From: Desulfobacterales bacterium
GTDB taxonomy: Bacteria; Desulfobacterota; Desulfobacteria; Desulfobacterales; JAHDSC01
Reading direction: 5' to 3'
NCBI GenBank assembly: GCA_016931455.1
Contig: JAFGES010000095.1
Coordinates: 12,487 to 76,486 of the forward strand
DNA: 64,000 bases
The notes beneath the pieces are model-generated. The model searched no databases and was not told the DNA's origin. It worked only from the letters and a program-made list of their open reading frames with translations. The position numbers were made by a program, and so were the translations under genes. This document shows, piece after piece, positions 5,864-22,808 of this stretch (positions are counted from its first letter, which is position 1; each line of letters starts with the position of its first letter).

Positions 5864-6946
5864 TCAATCCGGATGAATTTCGTTTACGATTTTTTCAATC
5901 AATTCATAAACTTCTATTTTGATGTGGTCCACGTCCTCATCTTGAAGATTCAAAAATTCCATTGTTTTTTTGTCTATTTGATTCTGTAAGGTATCATCGA
6001 TGTTTGCTCCTATACCAGTCATTATGGCGATTGAATTAGCCATGTTCAGGATATATGACAATTCATTTTCTTGTGATAAGCATGGCTCATGGTGATATTT
6101 TATAGCAATTGATAATGATTCAGGTATATTCCATTTCATGCAGAACTCGGATGCGATCTCTGCGTGATCAAACCCCAATATTTTTTTTTCAGCACTTTGC
6201 AACGTCTTTTGATGATTTTTAATCTGTTCATGAAACACTTCCTTATTTTCGAACAGATACGGGTCGAGAATGATTTTGCCTGCATCATGAAAGAGTCCAG
6301 CTGAAAAGGCGTCGTTTGCTAATTTAGGATTTCTTCTGCCGGCAATGATTTTGGAACCATAGGCCACAGCTAATGAATGACGCCAAAGATCTCCTGCTCC
6401 CATGCCGTATCCCTTCAATTTTTTGCCTAGGAAGTTTGAAGTACCAGCCAAAGTGATAATTTCTCCTAATTTTTCATGCCCAAGCACAACAGCGGCATGT
6501 TGAATGGAAGAGACCATTCCGCTCAGACCATAATATGCTGAATTCGCAAGTTTCAAAACCCTGGCGGCAATGGCCTGATCGGTTTCAAGGACGCTTCCTA
6601 TCTCTTTAAAGCTTGAATGGGATCGTGCCATGACCTCCCTAGCTTTAGATAAAATTTGAGGCATAGGAGGTAAATCGGTTAAGGTTTTTAAGATTTCCTT
6701 TTTTAAACTATCTCCGTGTATTTTTTTTTCGTTGGATGGTAAAGATGGGTTGGTTTCCTCATCCTTCATTTTTTCAGAAGTATGTGAATGGGAAGAGGTA
6801 TCATCCTCAGGTTCTGACTTTGATCGGAGATCAAGACAGATCCGGCCTTTGCAGGCTGGGCAAGGAAAGGAAATTTTTTTTCCTTTTGGGATTCGTTCGT
6901 CCGGTATGTTATACAATTTACTGCAATTTTGGCATTCTACGCGCAT
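5864..6946 (-). CDS. HDOD-domain protein with N-terminal zinc ribbon
   Basis: N-terminus has CxxC...CPxC (MRVECQNCSKLY...FPCPACKG), then a Ser/Glu-rich linker. HDOD-like region follows (AARVLKLANSAYYGLSGMVSSIQHAAVVLG ... FHDAGK). Last gene on the che-operon strand. Confidence 0.75.
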   Translation of the reverse strand: MRVECQNCSKLYNIPDERIPKGKKISFPCPACKGRICLDLRSKSEPEDDTSSHSHTSEKMKDEETNPSLPSNEKKIHGDSLKKEILKTLTDLPPMPQILSKAREVMARSHSSFKEIGSVLETDQAIAARVLKLANSAYYGLSGMVSSIQHAAVVLGHEKLGEIITLAGTSNFLGKKLKGYGMGAGDLWRHSLAVAYGSKIIAGRRNPKLANDAFSAGLFHDAGKIILDPYLFENKEVFHEQIKNHQKTLQSAEKKILGFDHAEIASEFCMKWNIPESLSIAIKYHHEPCLSQENELSYILNMANSIAIMTGIGANIDDTLQNQIDKKTMEFLNLQDEDVDHIKIEVYELIEKIVNEIHPD

Positions 6947-7082
6947 TGTGAAATTCTCTTTTTATTCATTTTTAATTGAAATTTGATTCATTAAATAGCA
7001 CATCGACACGTTCGAGCGATTATGTCCAAACCGGAAAGTAAAAATGTTTTTACTTAAAAGATTTGAGAGGCTGAGTTAATCG

Positions 7083-9260
7083 CTAATAATTTTTTTGTAG
7101 AATTTCAAATAAACCGGCTATGTCCAGTATCAGACCGACCTTGCCATCGCCCAAGATAGCACCGCCGGCCATACCTTTTATGTTTTTAAGGGCTTCCCCT
7201 AAGCTTTTGATCACGACTTCTTCCTGTCCTAGCAATTCATCCAAAAGCAGACCTCTTTTTTCATTTTTGTTCTCTACCACGACTACAAGACCGTCCCAAG
7301 GGTTTTTAGAGTCTCCCTGCACACCAAACATGCGATCCAGACGAATCAGCGGCGTCAAATCTCCCCTGACCATCACCATTTCGCCTTTACCTTTTATGGT
7401 ATAATAATCGTGCTTCCGAGGCTTAAATGATTCAAGAATTGCCATTGTCGGTAAAATATATCTTTGCGTTCCGACTCTTACGATCATCCCTTCAATAATG
7501 GCAAGGGTCAGTGGCAAACTGATGACAACCGTTGAACCCTGCCCAGGTGCTGAACGAATATCCAGGCGCCCGCGCAACTTTTCAATTCCCTTTTTGACAA
7601 CATCCATTCCTACACCCCGGCCGGAGACTGCAGTAATTTTTGCCGCCGTTGAAAATCCGGGATGAAAAATCAGATCATAAATTTCGGCTTCTGATAATTT
7701 TGCATCTTTGCTAATCAAATGGATTGCAATCGCCTTCTCAAGAATTCTCTCTTTATTTAGCCCCCTGCCATCATCTTCGATTTCTATGACGATATTACCG
7801 CCTTTATGATAAGCACGCAGCCGGATAATACCTTTTGCCTCTTTTTCCGCCTTTAACCGTTCTTGGGGAAGTTCAATTCCGTGATCAACGGCATTTCGAA
7901 TCATATGAACCAACGGTTCATAAAGTTCCTCGACCACATTTCTGTCGATTTCCGTATCTTCCCCAACCATTTCTAGTCCCACTTCTTTACCGGAGTTTCG
8001 GGCAAGATCCCGTACTAGCCGAACCATCTTATGAAAAGTGCTCTTGATGGGAACCATCCGCATAGACATGGCGATCTTCTGAAGCCCTGATACAATCTGA
8101 GTCAGTTGATTTAAATTCTGGTAAAGCTGTTGATCATTTAATGACTTAATCAAATTATTTTGCCTTAGCATTGCTTGAGATATGACCAGTTCACCGGTCA
8201 GGTCCACCAGGTTGTCCAGTTTGGCGGTATCCACTTTGACCTGGCGCTCCAAGAGACGCTGGTTTCCTTTTTGATCCCGCAATGCGGATATAACTTCCTT
8301 GGGCTTTGCTTTCTTTTTTTCAATCAGGATTTCACCGATTTTTTTATCGGGCATCGTTTCCTGTTTTTTTAACACTTGATTAAGCTCTTCTTCCTTGAGC
8401 GTACCTTTTCCAACCAGAATTTCACCCAACCGTTTTCCTGCTTTGTCGGCATGCCGAATCGTCGCTTCTATTTTGTTAATCAGCGGCTCAATGTCGCTGT
8501 TTTTCTCTAGTTCTTTCTCACCGGATGCCAATGCTTTCTCGACCCCGTGAATAAGCTGTTTAAGCGTATCGACCGATTCAAGAACGATATCAATGACGGC
8601 ATTCGTGATTCTGCATTCGCCTTGGCGAGCACTGTCAAGTAGATTCTCAGTGCTATGAGCCAGCCGGTTGATGTGGTTCAAATTTAGGAAACCCGATACC
8701 CCTTTGATGGTATGAAAGGGACGGAAAATGGCATTAATGGTTTCTTGGTCATCAGGATCCTGTTCAAGATTGATCAGGTGAATTTCAATTTGTTCTAGAT
8801 TTTCAAGTGCTTCGATGACAAAATCCTTCAGGATTTGAATGTCTTCCTGTGTCCATTCATCTTTTGCCGGCTGTTGGATAGCCCTTTCCGTTTGGTTTGG
8901 TGCGGATTTTCCTGCTTCTTCATTCTGAAAAAACCCCAGCCGTTTTAAAATGTGAGTCGTATCGAAGCTGTACGTTTCATTATTATTTATAGCACGCCAA
9001 ATAGTTTGTAGTGTAGTAATGCCGTCTTCAAGCGGACCCATATCACCTGTTTCCGCTAAAATAATTTTTTCCAGATATACCTTTTGGCTGTGGGTAATAT
9101 TTAAAAATGTTTGGTCTTCCAAGCGTTCGGCTTTTTCTTCAAGGGCTGAGAATGCGTTGAGCATTTCCCCCATGGCCGGAATATCTCCCGGTTCCAATGT
9201 AACCACCTGCAAGGCAAGCTTTTCCAGGTCTACTTTAATTTGTTCCATCATACCTTCCAC
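7083..9260 (-). CDS. cheA: Chemotaxis histidine kinase CheA (module 1)
   Basis: Hpt motif (FHTIKGVSGF), P3 dimerisation region, HATPase (NAVDHGIE, DDGRGL, GRGVGMDVV) and a C-terminal CheW-like domain. Carries a roughly 150-aa N-terminal extension before the Hpt. Confidence 0.95.
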   Translation of the reverse strand: MEGMMEQIKVDLEKLALQVVTLEPGDIPAMGEMLNAFSALEEKAERLEDQTFLNITHSQKVYLEKIILAETGDMGPLEDGITTLQTIWRAINNNETYSFDTTHILKRLGFFQNEEAGKSAPNQTERAIQQPAKDEWTQEDIQILKDFVIEALENLEQIEIHLINLEQDPDDQETINAIFRPFHTIKGVSGFLNLNHINRLAHSTENLLDSARQGECRITNAVIDIVLESVDTLKQLIHGVEKALASGEKELEKNSDIEPLINKIEATIRHADKAGKRLGEILVGKGTLKEEELNQVLKKQETMPDKKIGEILIEKKKAKPKEVISALRDQKGNQRLLERQVKVDTAKLDNLVDLTGELVISQAMLRQNNLIKSLNDQQLYQNLNQLTQIVSGLQKIAMSMRMVPIKSTFHKMVRLVRDLARNSGKEVGLEMVGEDTEIDRNVVEELYEPLVHMIRNAVDHGIELPQERLKAEKEAKGIIRLRAYHKGGNIVIEIEDDGRGLNKERILEKAIAIHLISKDAKLSEAEIYDLIFHPGFSTAAKITAVSGRGVGMDVVKKGIEKLRGRLDIRSAPGQGSTVVISLPLTLAIIEGMIVRVGTQRYILPTMAILESFKPRKHDYYTIKGKGEMVMVRGDLTPLIRLDRMFGVQGDSKNPWDGLVVVVENKNEKRGLLLDELLGQEEVVIKSLGEALKNIKGMAGGAILGDGKVGLILDIAGLFEILQKNY

Positions 9261-9281
9261 CTTATGGTGCCACGGCTTTAA

Positions 9282-9665
9282 TTAATGCAAAATTTTTTCT
9301 AATTTTTCAGATATTGCCTCAGCAGTGAATGGTTTTACCACGTAATTTGATACGCCTGCCTGGACAGCTTCAATTACATTCTGTTTTTGAGCCTCAGCGG
9401 TAACCATCAGAAACGGAATACTCTTTAAATCGTTGTTACTGCGAACAGCTTTAAGCAATTCAATGCCGGGCATATTGGGCATATTCCAATCCGAAATGAT
9501 TAAATCGAATTTTTTCTTCTTAAGTTCACTCATCGCTGTTGTTCCGTCATCAGCCTCAATTATATTCGTAAAACCGATTTGTTTTAAGATATTCTTCATT
9601 ATTCGGCGCATTGTTGCAAAATCGTCTACAACCAAGATATTAATGGACAGATCCATATGTGCCAT
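9282..9665 (-). CDS. cheY: Chemotaxis response regulator CheY
   Basis: Single receiver domain with VVDDF, ISDWNMP, MVTAE and VVKPF (the acidic pocket, T and K residues are all present). Confidence 0.9.
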   Translation of the reverse strand: MAHMDLSINILVVDDFATMRRIMKNILKQIGFTNIIEADDGTTAMSELKKKKFDLIISDWNMPNMPGIELLKAVRSNNDLKSIPFLMVTAEAQKQNVIEAVQAGVSNYVVKPFTAEAISEKLEKILH

Positions 9666-9701
9666 CCTTATTTTATATAGTGATGAATTTGCAAAAATAA
9701 A

Positions 9702-10163
9702 TTAATTTTCTAAACAAACTTCAATTGTAAAATTGCCCTCATCAATAGAAAAAGGAATTGCAATCTGAGGCCCTTTTGCAATATGAGCAATGCCATGATT
9801 TTTGCCGGTTATTACAGAGGGAATGGCTGCTTCAAATATCTTGCCGGATTCTGCCAGTTCTCTTCTGGCTTGACCAGATATCATATTGGTTAATTCACCA
9901 ACGGCATCAGCCACCTCACCATTTAACTCTTTCATTTCCTCCCCAAACATATTGGAAACAATTTTTAAAATACTGTTTTCATCAAAGGTGACGGAAATAG
10001 TCCCGTTTGTTTGACCCGTAATCCCAATAACACCTGTCACATCTCCTTTTGCAATATTGTCCTTTTTTAAATAAGGCGTACCTGCTTTGGATTTTACAAA
10101 AGCCATGGTTTCGAGAACATTCACAGTTGCATTGATAAAAGGATTAATCAGCATTGCATCCAT
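9702..10163 (-). CDS. cheX: CheX/CheC-family CheY-P phosphatase
   Basis: CheC/CheX-like sequence with GELTNMISGQA. The ATG at 10163 is preceded by AGGAGG 8 nt upstream, so I prefer it to the ORF-track start at 10223. Confidence 0.7.
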   Translation of the reverse strand: MDAMLINPFINATVNVLETMAFVKSKAGTPYLKKDNIAKGDVTGVIGITGQTNGTISVTFDENSILKIVSNMFGEEMKELNGEVADAVGELTNMISGQARRELAESGKIFEAAIPSVITGKNHGIAHIAKGPQIAIPFSIDEGNFTIEVCLEN

Positions 10164-10351
10164 TGATGTATTCCTCCTTTGGCGATAAGCAATATCTGCG
10201 TATCGATCGGCTTTTTTTGCCAATTGTGTTTAATTGATGTTTTACTTAAAATACTCAAATAATCCATGAAAAGTTTTATTGGCTTACATTAATAGATAAT
10301 ATCGGCCATAGGAAGTCGATTCCTAAGATTATAGTTGTAGAAAATTTGTCT

Positions 10352-10843
10352 TTATGCAGCTTCTTCGACAATTGCGATTTCTTGAGTGTTTAACACCCGA
10401 TCGATATCAAGTAGGATTTTAATACCTTCTTCCGTCTTGCCGATGCCTAATATATATTCGGTATTTAATTGGATTCCAAATGTGGGGGTCTCCTCGATAT
10501 CTTCAGCCTTGATGTTTAAGACTTCTGAAACCGAATCGACCACCAGCCCCATCATGATGGTACCTTCTTGACCGGCCACTTCAACCACAATGACACAGTT
10601 ACGCTCTGTATAATCAGTGGTTGCCATTTCAAATTTCAATCTAAGATCAATAACCGGTATGACTTTTCCGCGAAGGTTAATTACGCCTTTTACAAATTCG
10701 GGTACCTGCGGGACAGGCGTAATCGGCATCATACCAATAATTTCTTTTACTCTGAGGATGGCAATCCCATATTCCTCAGCTGCCAATGAAAAAGTAAGAT
10801 ATTTACCAGCCTTGTTTTTCACATTTTTTTCTAATTCAACCAC
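10352..10843 (-). CDS. cheW: Chemotaxis coupling protein CheW
   Basis: 163-aa CheW domain (YLTFSLAAEEYGIAILRVKEI ... GVINLRGKVIPVIDLR). Confidence 0.9.
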   Translation of the reverse strand: MVELEKNVKNKAGKYLTFSLAAEEYGIAILRVKEIIGMMPITPVPQVPEFVKGVINLRGKVIPVIDLRLKFEMATTDYTERNCVIVVEVAGQEGTIMMGLVVDSVSEVLNIKAEDIEETPTFGIQLNTEYILGIGKTEEGIKILLDIDRVLNTQEIAIVEEAA

Positions 10844-10902: not shown

Positions 10903-11985
10903 TTATTTCGAACCCTCACGTAAAACCGTACCCGCAATAGCTTCAAGCGGTAGAATCCGTTTAACCGCTTCTCGTTTAATTGCCTCATGAGGCATTCCAA
11001 ATACGACACAAGATGCTTCATCTTGAGCAATGGTAAAAGCACCGGCTTCCTTCATTTCAAGTAAGCCACGGGCACCATCATCTCCCATGCCAGTCAGGAT
11101 GACTCCCACTGCATTGGAACCTGCATAGCGGGCAGCCGACCGAAAAAGGACATCAACCGAGGGTCGATGCCTGCAAACCAAAGGGCCTTCTTTGATTTCG
11201 ACATAATATCTTGCTCCGGATCGTTTCAAAAGTATATGCCGATTTCCCGGCCCGATAAGTGCTTGACCGCGCAGAACCCTATCCTCATTCGCTGCTTCTT
11301 TGACCTCAATCTGACATAGATCGTTAATTCGTTTTGCAAAGGCCTTTGTAAAATTTTCCGGCATATGCTGAACAATTACAATGCCCGGACTGTCATGGGG
11401 AAGAGCTTCCAAAAGCAGACGTAACGCTTCCGTTCCACCTGTAGATGCGCCGACAACGACAATTCGATCCGTTGTACGTGCCATCGCTTTTCCAGTAGGC
11501 GGGGCTATAACTGCATCAGCCGTTAGTTTTTTAGTTATTTTGTTCCGTTTGTAAGAAATCGGTTTAACACGCGCCTTTGCCGCGGCTTTAACAGCATCAC
11601 AGATACGTATCTGTGATTCTTGAAAGAAATTTTTAACATCGACTCGGGGTTTTTGAATGATATCGACCGCACCATACTCCAGAGCTTTGAGGGTGGTTTC
11701 ACATCCCTTTTCGGTAAGGCTTGAACACATCACCACGGGTATCGGATGTTGAGACATGATTCGTTTCAGAAAAGTAATGCCGTCCATACGTGGCATTTCT
11801 ACATCAAGAGTGATAACATCAGGTATCTCATTTTTAATTTTATGGGCTGCGATAAACGGATCTGTTGCTGTCGCCATTACTTCGACTTCGGGATCTGATG
11901 ATAGAATTTGTTCTAGAGTCTGACGAACAACCGCTGAATCATCTACGATCAAGACTTTGATTTTTCTCTTCATTTTATAATTCAT
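10903..11985 (-). CDS. cheB: Protein-glutamate methylesterase CheB (receiver + esterase)
   Basis: N-terminal receiver (VLIVDDS, LDVEMP). C-terminal methylesterase ([18 protein letters not shown]). Confidence 0.95.
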
Positions 11986-13004: not shown

Positions 13005-13535
13005 CTATGCCGCATTTTCAGAAAGCATTATTTCTGAGTCGGTTTCCGAATTATTTTCGATTATCTGCGCGGCGGTGTATTCATTCGCCGTAAGGATACG
13101 ATCGATATCGAGAATAATTAGAAATTTTTCATCTTGTTTGCCCATACCCTTAATAAATTCATTTTTGAGTTTGGTTCCTATCCGCGGTGCTGGTGCGATT
13201 TGAGCCGGGTCAAGATCGATGACTTCTTTCACCGAATCGGCCAGAGCCCCCATCTGCATGATTTCGCCATCCATTTCGATTTCAACGATTACAATACAGG
13301 TATCAACTGTTTTCTGAATAGCACTCATGCCGAGTTTAAGCCGTAAGTCAATTACCGGTACGACATTGCCGCGCAGGTTGATAACGCCCCTGAGATACTC
13401 CGGCATGCGGGGTACTTTCGTGATGGTGGTATAGTCGAGTACCTCTCGCACCTTTGCAATTTCAAGTGCAAAATCCTCTTGACCCAGAGTAAATGTAAAA
13501 TATTGAGTTGCTTTGGTTATTTCGCCTGAACTCAT
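13005..13535 (-). CDS. cheW: Chemotaxis coupling protein CheW (second copy)
   Basis: 176-aa CheW domain (YFTFTLGQEDFALEIAKVREV ... GVINLRGNVVPVIDLR). Confidence 0.85.
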   Translation of the reverse strand: MSSGEITKATQYFTFTLGQEDFALEIAKVREVLDYTTITKVPRMPEYLRGVINLRGNVVPVIDLRLKLGMSAIQKTVDTCIVIVEIEMDGEIMQMGALADSVKEVIDLDPAQIAPAPRIGTKLKNEFIKGMGKQDEKFLIILDIDRILTANEYTAAQIIENNSETDSEIMLSENAA

Positions 13536-20660: not shown

Positions 20661-20822
20661 CAGTTCCCTCTTTTCCTATCTTTAAAATGTTGATGACAAA
20701 CTTCTGAAAAATTTTCATCGGTCATGATTATAATTTGGGTTATAAATGTGTGAACACAAGGTTCGTCCCTATTGGAAATCGGAGAGCCTTCATTCTACAA
20801 TTCATAATGGATAGGGCGCTGT

Positions 20823-22808
20823 TCAGAAGAGTTCAACGTTGTCTCCTAGGTCATCATCTTCTTGAGCATTTTCAAAAAGGGTCTTTGATTGCACGCCCGA
20901 ATTTCTATCTAAAGTATTTTTTGCTTTGGAGGATGTATGGCAGCAGTTTGTCTCATCCGACACCATTGATTCGTTTGTTTCTTTAAGTATTCGATTGTGG
21001 ATGCTGCGCTCACTTTGCATCGTGTATCTATGCGATGCGAGATCGATTTCATTTTGAATTTTCAAATCTTTTTGGGCCGACCATGTCTCTAACAACTTTG
21101 CCATCCCGTTGATCTGATTAAGGCATTTTTTCAGCCGGTCATTTAACTCAGTAAAAAAACAAAGATCCGATCTGATATGTTCTATTGTTTTCTTCACGGT
21201 ATATGACTGTTGCAGGGTTGTTGTAGAATTCATTCGTAACTTTTTGTAAGCTGTGGAAATTTGATCAATCCCAATCTGAAGGGGCGTTTTGGATTTTTTA
21301 TCTTTCGACATCTGTGTTCTTTTTTCCCAAGACTGATTTTTTAAATTCCGGGCCAAAGCATTGATCGATTGGAGAATTTCCACTACTTGATTTACGAATA
21401 TCTCTGATTCATTTGAAATTTTTGTTACCTCTTGCGCAAGAACATCAAGTGTTTTGCCTTTATCATTTAAGTGTGCCGTCTTAACAATGGCATTTAGGGC
21501 TTTAAGGTGAAGATCTATACTGATTCCGCGAACTTGATTGACATATTGCGAAAGATGGGATGCGGTTTTGGATGTTTGTATCGCGGTTTGAATCATTTGA
21601 CAGCCAAGCTCGTTTCCTTGAATACTTAGTTGATCGAGATGTTCAAGGTTGGCTTTTAGCGTTTTAAGCGGTATTTCGATTTGACTTTTTGTGGTTCCCT
21701 GAAGGGTTTGTGCCGACATGTTGTTTGCCAGTAAGTCGGCTTCACTCTCAATATCTTCAAATGCGGAATTTATTTTTTGATGTGCCCCATTGATTTCAGC
21801 GATAACATGTTCTAATTGAGCTGCTTGGAGACTTAAAATTGAATATGCTCGACCTAAAACAGCATCCGGATCGAGGTTAGGGATTTTTTCATTACAAATA
21901 CTTTCCAAATCCCGGAGAGATGACACAATATGCTCGATCTTTTGTTTAGCGATGTCTTGGAATTGGATTGCCATCACGATTTCGCTGATCTGATTCGAAA
22001 TGTTTTGTGAATGGAAACCGGCCTTTTTGAATACTTCCACCAAGAGCTCCATAAGATGGGATATTTCACGGATTGAATTTTTTACAGTCTTATCGGCATC
22101 ATCCTTGAGTTTGCATAAATGGGCGATGCCTTCGGATACCTGATTGTGGGCCAGCATCTGATGAGATCGTTCCGAATAGGCGTGATCACGGATGTTTTGC
22201 GAAATTTCAAGAATATTTATGGTAATCTCTCTGATTTCTTGAATAAAAACTGTGAACATTTTTAAAGATTGCCTTGAGCGTGAGCTTTCAACCGCAATAT
22301 TAAAGCCGATGACATTAAGTGACATGGCTGTTTTTTCAATTATTTTGCATAGGTTATATAAATTTTTTAGATGTTCCGAACCATCCTTTATGCTTTGCAT
22401 GCAATTTGATAATCGGGATTCACAGCTCTGAAGTTCGGATAGAGCCTCTCCGACAATTCCTGAGATATTGTTCAAAATATTATCTTCAGATTTCCCACCC
22501 AGCATTTGTGCGGTTTCAACTGTTTGTCGGGCCAATTCATGACTATCGGAATAAACGGATTGGAGATCTTGACCGAGCTGCAAAAATTTTGGTTCGGCAT
22601 GTTTAATGCTTGCTTGAAGAAAGTCAATAAGCTCCGGCAGCTTAGATGATGTTTCATCAATTAAGGGGAATGCTTTATTGAAAGCAAAAAAAAATTTATT
22701 TTTTCTACGATTCCGGGGAAAAATATGGAATTTTTTTCTTATCTTTAACTTAGTATAATTTGTAAGCCAATTCACCATAATCTCCATCAAACGATTTGTA
22801 TTTTTCAA
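20823..22808 (-). CDS. Cytoplasmic MCP-like protein with two degenerate signalling-tip motifs
   Basis: aa 164-196 (LNVIGFNIAVESSRSRQSLKMFTVFIQEIREIT) and aa 435-465 (LKALNAIVKTAHLNDKGKTLDVLAQEVTKIS) both align position-by-position with the MCP tip [30 protein letters not shown]. An IQFQDIAKQKIEHI motif follows the first. No transmembrane segment. Start is uncertain (TTG at 22808 or ATG at 22787). Confidence 0.55.
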   Translation of the reverse strand: MKNTNRLMEIMVNWLTNYTKLKIRKKFHIFPRNRRKNKFFFAFNKAFPLIDETSSKLPELIDFLQASIKHAEPKFLQLGQDLQSVYSDSHELARQTVETAQMLGGKSEDNILNNISGIVGEALSELQSCESRLSNCMQSIKDGSEHLKNLYNLCKIIEKTAMSLNVIGFNIAVESSRSRQSLKMFTVFIQEIREITINILEISQNIRDHAYSERSHQMLAHNQVSEGIAHLCKLKDDADKTVKNSIREISHLMELLVEVFKKAGFHSQNISNQISEIVMAIQFQDIAKQKIEHIVSSLRDLESICNEKIPNLDPDAVLGRAYSILSLQAAQLEHVIAEINGAHQKINSAFEDIESEADLLANNMSAQTLQGTTKSQIEIPLKTLKANLEHLDQLSIQGNELGCQMIQTAIQTSKTASHLSQYVNQVRGISIDLHLKALNAIVKTAHLNDKGKTLDVLAQEVTKISNESEIFVNQVVEILQSINALARNLKNQSWEKRTQMSKDKKSKTPLQIGIDQISTAYKKLRMNSTTTLQQSYTVKKTIEHIRSDLCFFTELNDRLKKCLNQINGMAKLLETWSAQKDLKIQNEIDLASHRYTMQSERSIHNRILKETNESMVSDETNCCHTSSKAKNTLDRNSGVQSKTLFENAQEDDDLGDNVELF

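Follow-up and report, generated by a model that had tools for sequence, protein, structure and literature searches.

DosM (VC1403) is the signature protein of F9 chemosensory systems with a triple-CheW protein (PMC9321776, PMC7534058); it forms an extended rod with a signaling domain at each end that bridges two baseplates (PMC7534058, PMC9321776), and 98% of its homologues have no sensor (PMC9321776). The hallmark of CheZ across Proteobacteria is AxxFQ immediately upstream of the catalytic DxxxQ (PMC7750401), and the same DxxxQ, the catalytic pair of CheZ, also serves as the phosphatase motif in HisKA_3 kinases of the NarX type, in which it comes after the His (PMC3510030). Here we describe a protein, called X below, that is encoded in a stretch of 64,000 nucleotides (nt) from a Desulfobacterales bacterium (assembly GCA_016931455.1, contig JAFGES010000095.1, positions 12,487 to 76,486; the whole stretch is referred to as the window). 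X is a derivative of the chemoreceptors, or methyl-accepting chemotaxis proteins (MCPs), in which sensing and methylation have been lost and the signaling hairpin has been duplicated. Its first hairpin carries a near-invariant patch with the signature of CheZ, and from this pattern we tentatively read X as a CheY-P phosphatase that docks into the array, analogous to CheZ but shaped like a receptor; this is the interpretation that we prefer, although we hold it to be somewhat short of probable.

The gene for X occupies 20823..22775 on the minus strand and encodes 650 amino acids (aa), with its stop codon at 20823-20825. The mechanical open reading frame is 20823..22808 on the same strand and opens with a TTG at 22808; we placed the start at the GTG at 22775, the likely start codon, because the identical database protein P0001 has 650 aa, homologues share the N-terminus M-x-NWL, and a GGAG lies 6 nt upstream of the GTG. 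Residues are numbered from this codon. The N-terminal 25 residues (22701..22775, minus strand) are basic and aromatic, poorly conserved, and predicted to be disordered (pLDDT of <50 for residues 1 to 30). They are followed by hairpin 1, made up of an N-arm, a tip, and a C-arm (aa 26 to 295; 21891..22700, minus strand), a short loop whose length differs among homologues (aa 296 to 302; 21870..21890, minus strand), and hairpin 2 (aa 303 to 568; 21072..21869, minus strand). Tip 1, LNVIGFNIAVESSRSRQSLKMFTVFIQEIREIT, covers aa 153 to 185 (22221..22319, minus strand) and tip 2, LKALNAIVKTAHLNDKGKTLDVLAQEVTKIS, aa 424 to 454 (21414..21506, minus strand).

Both halves of X were recognized as MCP signaling domains by independent profiles. 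Pfam MCPsignal (PF00015) matches X in two stretches at 42 bits, above its curated cut-off of 34.6, and matches 34 of 35 family members; NCBIfam MCP models also match in both halves. When a profile of the 35 members was searched against solved structures, the second half found 2ch7 (E value of 6.9e-12) and the first half, at profile positions 53 to 257, found 3g6b (E value of 9e-11). Against a small MCP profile, consisting of Tar, Tap, the 938-aa MCP encoded in the window, and four MCPs from related loci, hhalign aligned residues 30 to 300 with 96.4% probability (E value of 1.3e-9) and residues 301 to 600 with 98.0% probability (E value of 2.3e-13). Each half is collinear with an MCP hairpin from N-arm through tip to C-arm, and the two halves align with one another in register over 244 columns, tip matched to tip (72.7%, E value of 3.2e-5), so that X represents the duplication, within one chain, of a hairpin some 270 residues long. 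The two tips are degenerate and dissimilar to one another; in tip 1 the polar residues of the tip are mostly retained (N, LN, E, R, E, F, E-x-R) despite the loss of Ala and Gly.

Structure prediction also located the tips. An AlphaFold2 model of full-length X on the family alignment was all-helical (pLDDT of 78, pTM of 0.57), with a helix break at residues 165 to 167, the expected position of tip 1. The C-half modeled alone (61 sequences, pLDDT of 79) broke at residues 435 and 436, the expected position of tip 2, and its best 15 Foldseek matches were all chemoreceptor cytoplasmic domains, among them the tip fragment 6s1k_E (TM of 0.78, 2.9 Å). A preliminary description made from the DNA alone had proposed two tandem, highly degenerate MCP hairpins in one soluble polypeptide with no transmembrane helix, HAMP, or sensor domain, and had suggested a profile search against MCPsignal and structure prediction as checks; both analyses bear the proposal out, with the break at tip 2 appearing in the C-half model alone. 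The three peptides that it quoted are exact minus-strand translations (22221-22319, 21414-21506, and 21927-21968), and its term "highly degenerate" is fair for the Ala and Gly residues.

The modules that would make X a conventional receptor are absent. Scans with Pfam and NCBIfam, and with Pfam on the 35 family members as well, found no transmembrane, HAMP, or sensor domain. The methylation consensus [ASTG][ASTG]xx[EQ][EQ]xx[ASTG][ASTG] has no match in X and none in 182 of 199 family members (picked without reference to the patch described below), with scattered matches in the remaining members, compared with two to five matches each in Tar, Tap, and four Desulfobacterota MCPs. X thus has MCP signaling domains but, lacking both the methylation consensus and an input module, is not a methyl-accepting chemotaxis protein.

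The patch, EIVMAIQFQDIAKQKIEHI (aa 265 to 283; 21927..21983, minus strand), was delimited from the family alignment and from hhalign alignments to CheZ. It lies on the returning arm of hairpin 1, and its central segment, AIQFQDIAKQ (aa 269 to 278), is an exact instance of the CheZ signature AxxFQ-DxxxQ. Across the family the motif is E-I-V-x-A-I-Q-F-[H/Q]-D-I-x-R-Q-x-x-E-H, with the core A-x-x-F-[H/Q]-D-x3-Q-x2-E-H. Q-x-x-D-x3-Q is present in 197 of the 199 members and in 78 of 79 genomic loci, the latter being the best 79 of 348 relatives found in a scan of one genome per species; the residue just before the Asp is His in 176 members (89%) and Gln in 12 (6%). In 133 of 140 members, the patch follows the glutamate of tip 1 at a fixed distance of 111 residues. 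Hairpin 2 has no DxxxQ, and the equivalent position there is occupied by L-x-F-L-x-x-L; since this hairpin does without them, the Asp and Gln of the patch would be unnecessary for mere hairpin folding. Judged by the hydrophobic pattern, they fall at heptad positions b and f and would be solvent-exposed. Residue distances to the tip would place a conserved N-arm motif, EPxFLxLGxxLQxxYS (aa 61 to 76; 22548..22595, minus strand; F64 invariant, G68 and L71 nearly so), opposite the patch. In the canonical MCPs of the same clusters (loci L012-L090) the corresponding tip-to-motif distance is 89 residues, one heptad below the 96 residues of Tar, versus 111 in X, which makes each arm of hairpin 1 about three heptads longer than in the co-encoded receptors.

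Profile comparisons point from the patch to CheZ. With either E. coli CheZ or an alignment of nine CheZ sequences, hhalign aligned EIVMAIQFQDIAKQKIEHI with EIMMAQDFQDLTGQVIKRM, setting D274 on D143 and Q278 on Q147. Pfam CheZ (PF04344) was the only non-MCP family matched repeatedly, in 10 of 35 members at an E value of <0.01 (best, 5.3e-5), and the NCBIfam CheZ model matches X as well. The CheZ profile scored 26.9 against the N-half of X (E value of 0.0033, probability of 9.8%). CheZ compared with canonical MCPs or with the C-half of X gave E values of at least 0.12, off the motif; a reversed CheZ profile scored 17.0, and 100 column shuffles had a mean of 13.7, a standard deviation of 2.4, and a maximum of 22.3. 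When columns were shuffled in blocks of seven, 1 of 100 shuffles reached the real score. The CheZ profile is shallow, its nine sequences including four from plasmid records, and a homologue search with E. coli CheZ listed 120 matches that are all at least 79% identical, too shallow for a profile. Statistically, then, the similarity to CheZ appears weak but specific. The preliminary description had taken IQFQDIAKQKIEHI as an ordinary MCP feature, and it does occupy the position of an MCP motif; what escaped it was the remodeling of this motif into a near-invariant, CheZ-like patch, along with an invariant peptide on the disordered C-terminal tail.

That tail begins beyond hairpin 2, which is followed closely by a conserved, predicted helix with the sequence RYTMQSERSIH (aa 583 to 593; 20997..21029, minus strand; family form Y-T-x-x-S-E-R-x-x-H, in 183 of the 199 members). 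A variable, disordered linker (aa 603 to 639; 20859..20969, minus strand; pLDDT of <50) then leads to the terminal peptide DDDLGDNVELF (aa 640 to 650; 20826..20858, minus strand), which the family alignment shows to be almost invariant, as [DE][DE][LF]-G-D-N-[VI]-E-[LF]-F. The terminus of CheZ, QVDDLLDSLGF, binds CheY. The two ends are partly similar (DDLGDNVELF in X, DDLLDSLGF in CheZ), and by analogy a disordered linker with an acidic and hydrophobic terminal peptide ending in Phe would mirror the layout of CheZ.

From these features we infer array docking, CheY binding, and phosphatase catalysis by X, as follows. One or both hairpin tips would dock X into the array of CheA1 and CheW in the manner of receptor tips. 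The tail N-V-E-L-F, together with the patch, would capture the phosphorylated form of CheY1, which is encoded two genes downstream. The patch would supply an acid-plus-amide pair of the CheZ/NarX kind, one helical turn apart, and the exposed D274/Q278 pair would speed dephosphorylation of CheY1-P; the adjacent STAS-domain protein may modulate X.

Several observations weigh against this mechanism. Aligned with canonical MCPs by hhalign, the patch coincides with the motif conserved in the second methylation helix (AVSEMDRVTQQ in Tar), which in the MCPs of the same clusters is A[IL]QQLDxxxQQN with an invariant Asp and first Gln. A(-5), I(-4), Q(-3), D(0), and Q(+4) of the patch are thus inherited from an MCP motif that, to our knowledge, has no phosphatase role at this position; only F(-2), H/Q(-1), E(+7), and H(+8) are specific to the family, and the methylatable EE pair is gone. 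Pfam CheZ stays below its threshold in all members (22.4 versus 30.7 bits for X), hhalign probabilities for CheZ are just 2 to 10%, and CheZ is absent at E values of ≤10 from the profile search of solved structures. At 111 residues from tip 1, the patch would lie roughly 16 nm from the presumed baseplate. Finally, three of the five positions of NWETF, the pentapeptide that tethers CheR/CheB, recur in the tail N-V-E-L-F (N, E, and F).

The last point hints at another use of the tail, as a variant of NWETF by which X would serve as a docking hub that concentrates the adaptation enzymes CheR or CheB near receptors. The N-x-E-x-F ending is tethered as receptor pentapeptides are, and some family members have F at position 2. 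A candidate client is a short CheR of 201 aa, with a SAM-binding domain but no CheR_N, encoded right after CheA1 (17795-17190, minus strand); CheR matches of about 200 aa also lie directly after CheA in L051, L052, L057, L058, and L085. Pentapeptides of the NWETF type are, however, defined by an aromatic residue at position 2, and about 95% of the family have V or I there (71% V and 28% I in one count), so that its tail breaks the rule of aromatics at positions 2 and 5. In 47 of 60 cases, the canonical MCPs of these clusters themselves have the ending x[FWY]xx[FWY] (EFERF, DFEDY, EFERY), and this difference at position 2 makes it likely that the tail of X has a partner other than that of the co-encoded MCP tails. 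A docking hub would moreover have no methylation sites of its own and leaves the patch unexplained, and we regard this role as very unlikely.

The hairpins themselves raise the question of a purely structural role like that of DosM, in which the two signaling domains of X would insert into CheA/CheW lattices, in two layers or as a single-chain pseudo-dimer, and would nucleate or stabilize a cytoplasmic array for sensor-bearing receptors, with no catalysis. X is soluble and sensor-less with two MCP signaling domains, as are 98% of DosM homologues (PMC9321776), its tips keep key polar residues, and its clusters also encode canonical MCPs and CheW. The preliminary description had cited DosM as a precedent and had stated that the module headed by X lacks CheW. 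The precedent is a fair one for architecture and fails for context, as there is neither an F9 setting nor a triple CheW; the statement on CheW is incorrect, since the gene string that starts with X includes two genes for single-domain CheW proteins, at 13005-13535 and 10352-10843. Evidence on topology is mixed. The best-confidence segments of the full-length model are the four tip-distal ones (approximately 41 to 90, 251 to 295, 311 to 350, and 521 to 560), which in the model fit a four-helix bundle formed by a single chain, its two tips at the same end. The same model has a continuous helix from residue 361 to 479 that runs through tip 2 without a break; this helix is geometrically incompatible with such a bundle and weakens it, but it conflicts in turn with the collinear MCP alignment and with the C-half model. 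Searched against the PDB with Foldseek, the full-length model matched mostly long coiled coils (SMC, toxins), an uninformative result in which MCPs were matched by only one of the hairpins. The hairpins are joined not by a continuous helix but through a short, variable, proline-containing loop, and a scaffold would not explain why the strongest conservation falls not in the tips but in the patch, YTxxSERxxH, and the terminal peptide. We therefore consider a scaffold without catalysis conceivable but rather unlikely.

The genes around X bear on the phosphatase reading and on a further possibility. X is the first gene of a minus-strand string and is followed by genes for a 101-aa STAS-domain protein (20660-20355, minus strand; identified with Pfam, NCBIfam, and alignment), the CheY-type single-domain response regulator CheY1 (20343-19978, minus strand), and CheA1, which has Hpt, dimerization, HATPase_c, and CheW-like P5 domains (19967-17817, minus strand; both identified with Pfam and NCBIfam). 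This order recurs. Other che genes are present in 74 of the 79 loci, and among the 69 loci with at least 1.5 kb of sequence after X, CheY lies ≤1.6 kb downstream of X in 55, usually as STAS-CheY-CheA. A STAS gene is detectable between X and CheY in 39 of those 55, and where CheY lies downstream, it comes immediately after X in about one-quarter of the loci, with no room for STAS. Five loci with precomputed Pfam calls read X-STAS-CheY-CheA and then CheW, CheR, CheB, CheD, or MCP. No homologue of CheX or CheZ was found in any of the 79 loci; this absence and the close linkage of X to CheY lend the phosphatase reading circumstantial support. A figure legend in PMC9239204 includes STAS among the genes listed in order for one of the F classes. 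A scan of the 162-nt gap between X and the STAS gene revealed no terminator-like site; the gap contains a sigma-70-like promoter match, TTCACA-16-TATAAT (11/12; 20727-20754, minus strand), and the region around X does not exceed shuffled sequence in its number of promoter-like sites.

One consensus, V-T-E-C-D-T-A-G-[IVL]-Q-L, is common to the STAS proteins of these modules (46 homologues, L012-L090). At the position of the SpoIIAA phospho-serine these proteins mostly have Ala, as does the protein in the window, and some have Leu, Ser, or Thr, so most of them are probably not regulated by serine phosphorylation; Ala at this position suggests stable binding, not phosphorylation-driven partner switching. 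X could accordingly be pictured as a dedicated kinase-control input of CheA1 whose "ligand" is the STAS protein, or else a cofactor (metal or redox) bound at the His/Asp/Glu-rich end, that alters the packing of the bundle. The place of X at the head of the string upstream of STAS-CheY-CheA, with STAS separating it from CheY in 39 of 69 loci, agrees with such a role, as does the loss of the phospho-serine from the STAS proteins (consensus CDTAG), which would suit a stably bound partner; conserved H, D, E, H, Y, E, R, and H residues gather at the tip-distal end of X, and an MBL-fold protein with a weak match to ODP is encoded in the operon of the window and in L051. The quarter of CheY-bearing loci that leave STAS no room do not fit this picture, X and the 35 members match no sensor or metal-binding family, and there are no methylation sites for adaptation. 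Kinase control of this kind is, in our estimation, unlikely. The phosphatase, scaffold, kinase-control, and docking-hub roles are not mutually exclusive, and a CheY-P phosphatase docked in the array remains the reading that we carry forward.

Beyond CheA1 and the short CheR, the string continues on the minus strand with the MBL-fold protein (199 aa; 17177-16578), a canonical MCP of 938 aa with four HAMP_2 domains, methylation sites, and a C-terminal NEFERF (16462-13646), a single-domain CheW of 176 aa located 4.3 kb past CheA1 (13535-13005), a full-length CheR of 291 aa (12861-11986), and CheB (11985-10903). In homologous modules, single CheW genes come directly after CheA. A second chemosensory module in the same string (5864-10843, minus strand) comprises another single-domain CheW of 163 aa (10843-10352), CheX (10223-9702), CheY2 (9665-9282), CheA2, with an Hpt domain from residue 142 only (9260-7083), and an HDOD protein with an N-terminal zinc ribbon (6946-5864). 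Here CheX directly precedes CheY2-CheA2, the position held by X (with STAS) before CheY1-CheA1, a parallel that likewise counts circumstantially in favor of a phosphatase. The Pfam match of the MBL-fold protein to ODP, the oxygen-binding di-iron protein, is below threshold (E value of 2.4e-4); homologues that are 54 to 58% identical are encoded near X in L051 (6213-6800), L057, and L085, and the protein could be a sensory partner. In CheA1, residues ~290 to 314, just ahead of the dimerization domain, gave a sub-threshold NCBIfam match to an MshE-related cyclic-di-GMP-binding motif in two stretches (28.4 versus 38 bits, E value of 1.1e-6).

An exhaustive HMM search of 1.84 billion representatives recovered about 1,600 clusters (at 50% identity) of the family of X at E values of ≤1e-30; the 150th match still had an E value of 1e-141 over its full length, and family lengths run from 582 to 715 aa (5th to 95th percentile). 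With about 1,600 full-length clusters and 99% conservation of the motif, an origin of X by chance or as a pseudogene is ruled out. The best 79 relatives come mostly from Desulfobacterota (Desulfobacterales, Desulfatiglandales, Syntrophales, Desulfarculales, and Desulfobulbia), with a few from Sedimentisphaerales, Pirellulales, Lentisphaerae, and Bryobacteraceae, and cultured hosts include Desulfosarcina alkanivorans PL12, Desulfoluna butyratoxydans MSL71, and Desulfonema limicola. Database names for the proteins are "hypothetical," "methyl-accepting chemotaxis protein," and once "CheZ," and we found no paper describing the family in the literature on CheZ-like receptors, STAS in che clusters, Geobacter che clusters, and tandem signaling domains. 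Identity to the proteins of D. limicola (L001) is ~80% for CheW (13005-13535) and ~78% for CheB (10903-11985) but only ~35% for X, which points to a probable kinship of the organism with Desulfonema and to much faster evolution of X than of the core Che proteins. Several genomes encode two or three paralogues, for example, L003 (1-1392 and 8001-9749), L029/L046/L070 (one metagenome-assembled genome), and L035/L062 (one metagenome-assembled genome), and paralogues at times flank one che cluster at both ends. They show two motif subtypes, QFHDI[ATV]RQ, usually with STAS next, and Q[IL]HDSM[SN]QR, often with CheY-CheW directly next.

Receptors with two signaling domains have so far been known only from DosM and the F9 systems; the lineage of X is far larger, looks unrelated, and has conserved gene partners of its own. 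If the patch is catalytic, X would be the first CheY-P phosphatase built into a receptor-like array subunit, would provide a candidate mechanism of signal termination for Desulfobacterota, which largely lack CheZ, and would offer a testable hypothesis for the evolutionary origin of CheZ. The most far-reaching version of this idea is that X is a receptor-phosphatase hybrid that links chemoreceptors to CheZ: the catalytic helix and C-terminal peptide of CheZ would derive from the second methylation helix (A[IL]QQLDxxxQQN) and the pentapeptide tether, and X would preserve an intermediate that docks by its tips while dephosphorylating CheY. We consider this scenario quite improbable. Should the patch prove noncatalytic, the family nonetheless represents a sensor-less part of chemosensory arrays that has gone unexplored, and one found in cultivable organisms (D. 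limicola, D. alkanivorans, and D. butyratoxydans).

Set beside the described systems, X shares features with each and coincides with none. Like canonical MCPs (PF00015; Tar, Tsr, TM14), it has halves collinear with the signaling hairpin, a polar tip 1, a patch at the position of the A[IL] motif, and a putative C-terminal tether; unlike them, it has two hairpins per chain, no sensor or HAMP domain, no methylation consensus, a tip-to-motif distance of 111 instead of 89 residues, and a nonaromatic residue at position 2 of the tail. HisKA_3 proteins of the NarX type resemble most family members in having H-D-x3-Q on a bundle helix, but the family of X has no ATPase domain. Membership in HisKA_3 was rejected: none of 35 members has a Pfam match, and the His is replaced in 21 of 197 members (~11%; by Q, Y, R, A, D, or E, with Q in X), while the Asp and Gln are invariant. 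With CheZ, X shares the helix signature A-x-x-F-Q-D-x3-Q and a hydrophobic pattern over ~22 residues, a helical-hairpin bundle, a disordered linker with an acidic and hydrophobic C-terminal peptide ending in F, and a gene near cheY. It differs from CheZ in size and plan (650 aa and two MCP-type hairpins in X, ~214 aa and a single shorter hairpin in CheZ), in its MCP tips, which CheZ lacks, in the His that most members have at the position of CheZ Q142, and in scoring below the Pfam threshold. DosM is likewise a soluble, usually sensor-less protein with two MCP signaling domains encoded in a che cluster. X stands instead among single-domain CheWs (176 and 163 aa) and STAS-CheY-CheA, with no F9 context and no triple CheW, its tips are degenerate and unlike one another, and it carries the DxxxQ patch and an invariant, tethered C-terminal peptide; gene context and motifs are what set it apart. 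The family thus lies outside the methyl-accepting proteins, the DosM context, the CheZ profile, and HisKA_3, and by its context and motifs X marks a second lineage of soluble, receptor-like proteins with double signaling domains, distinct from DosM and the F9 systems.

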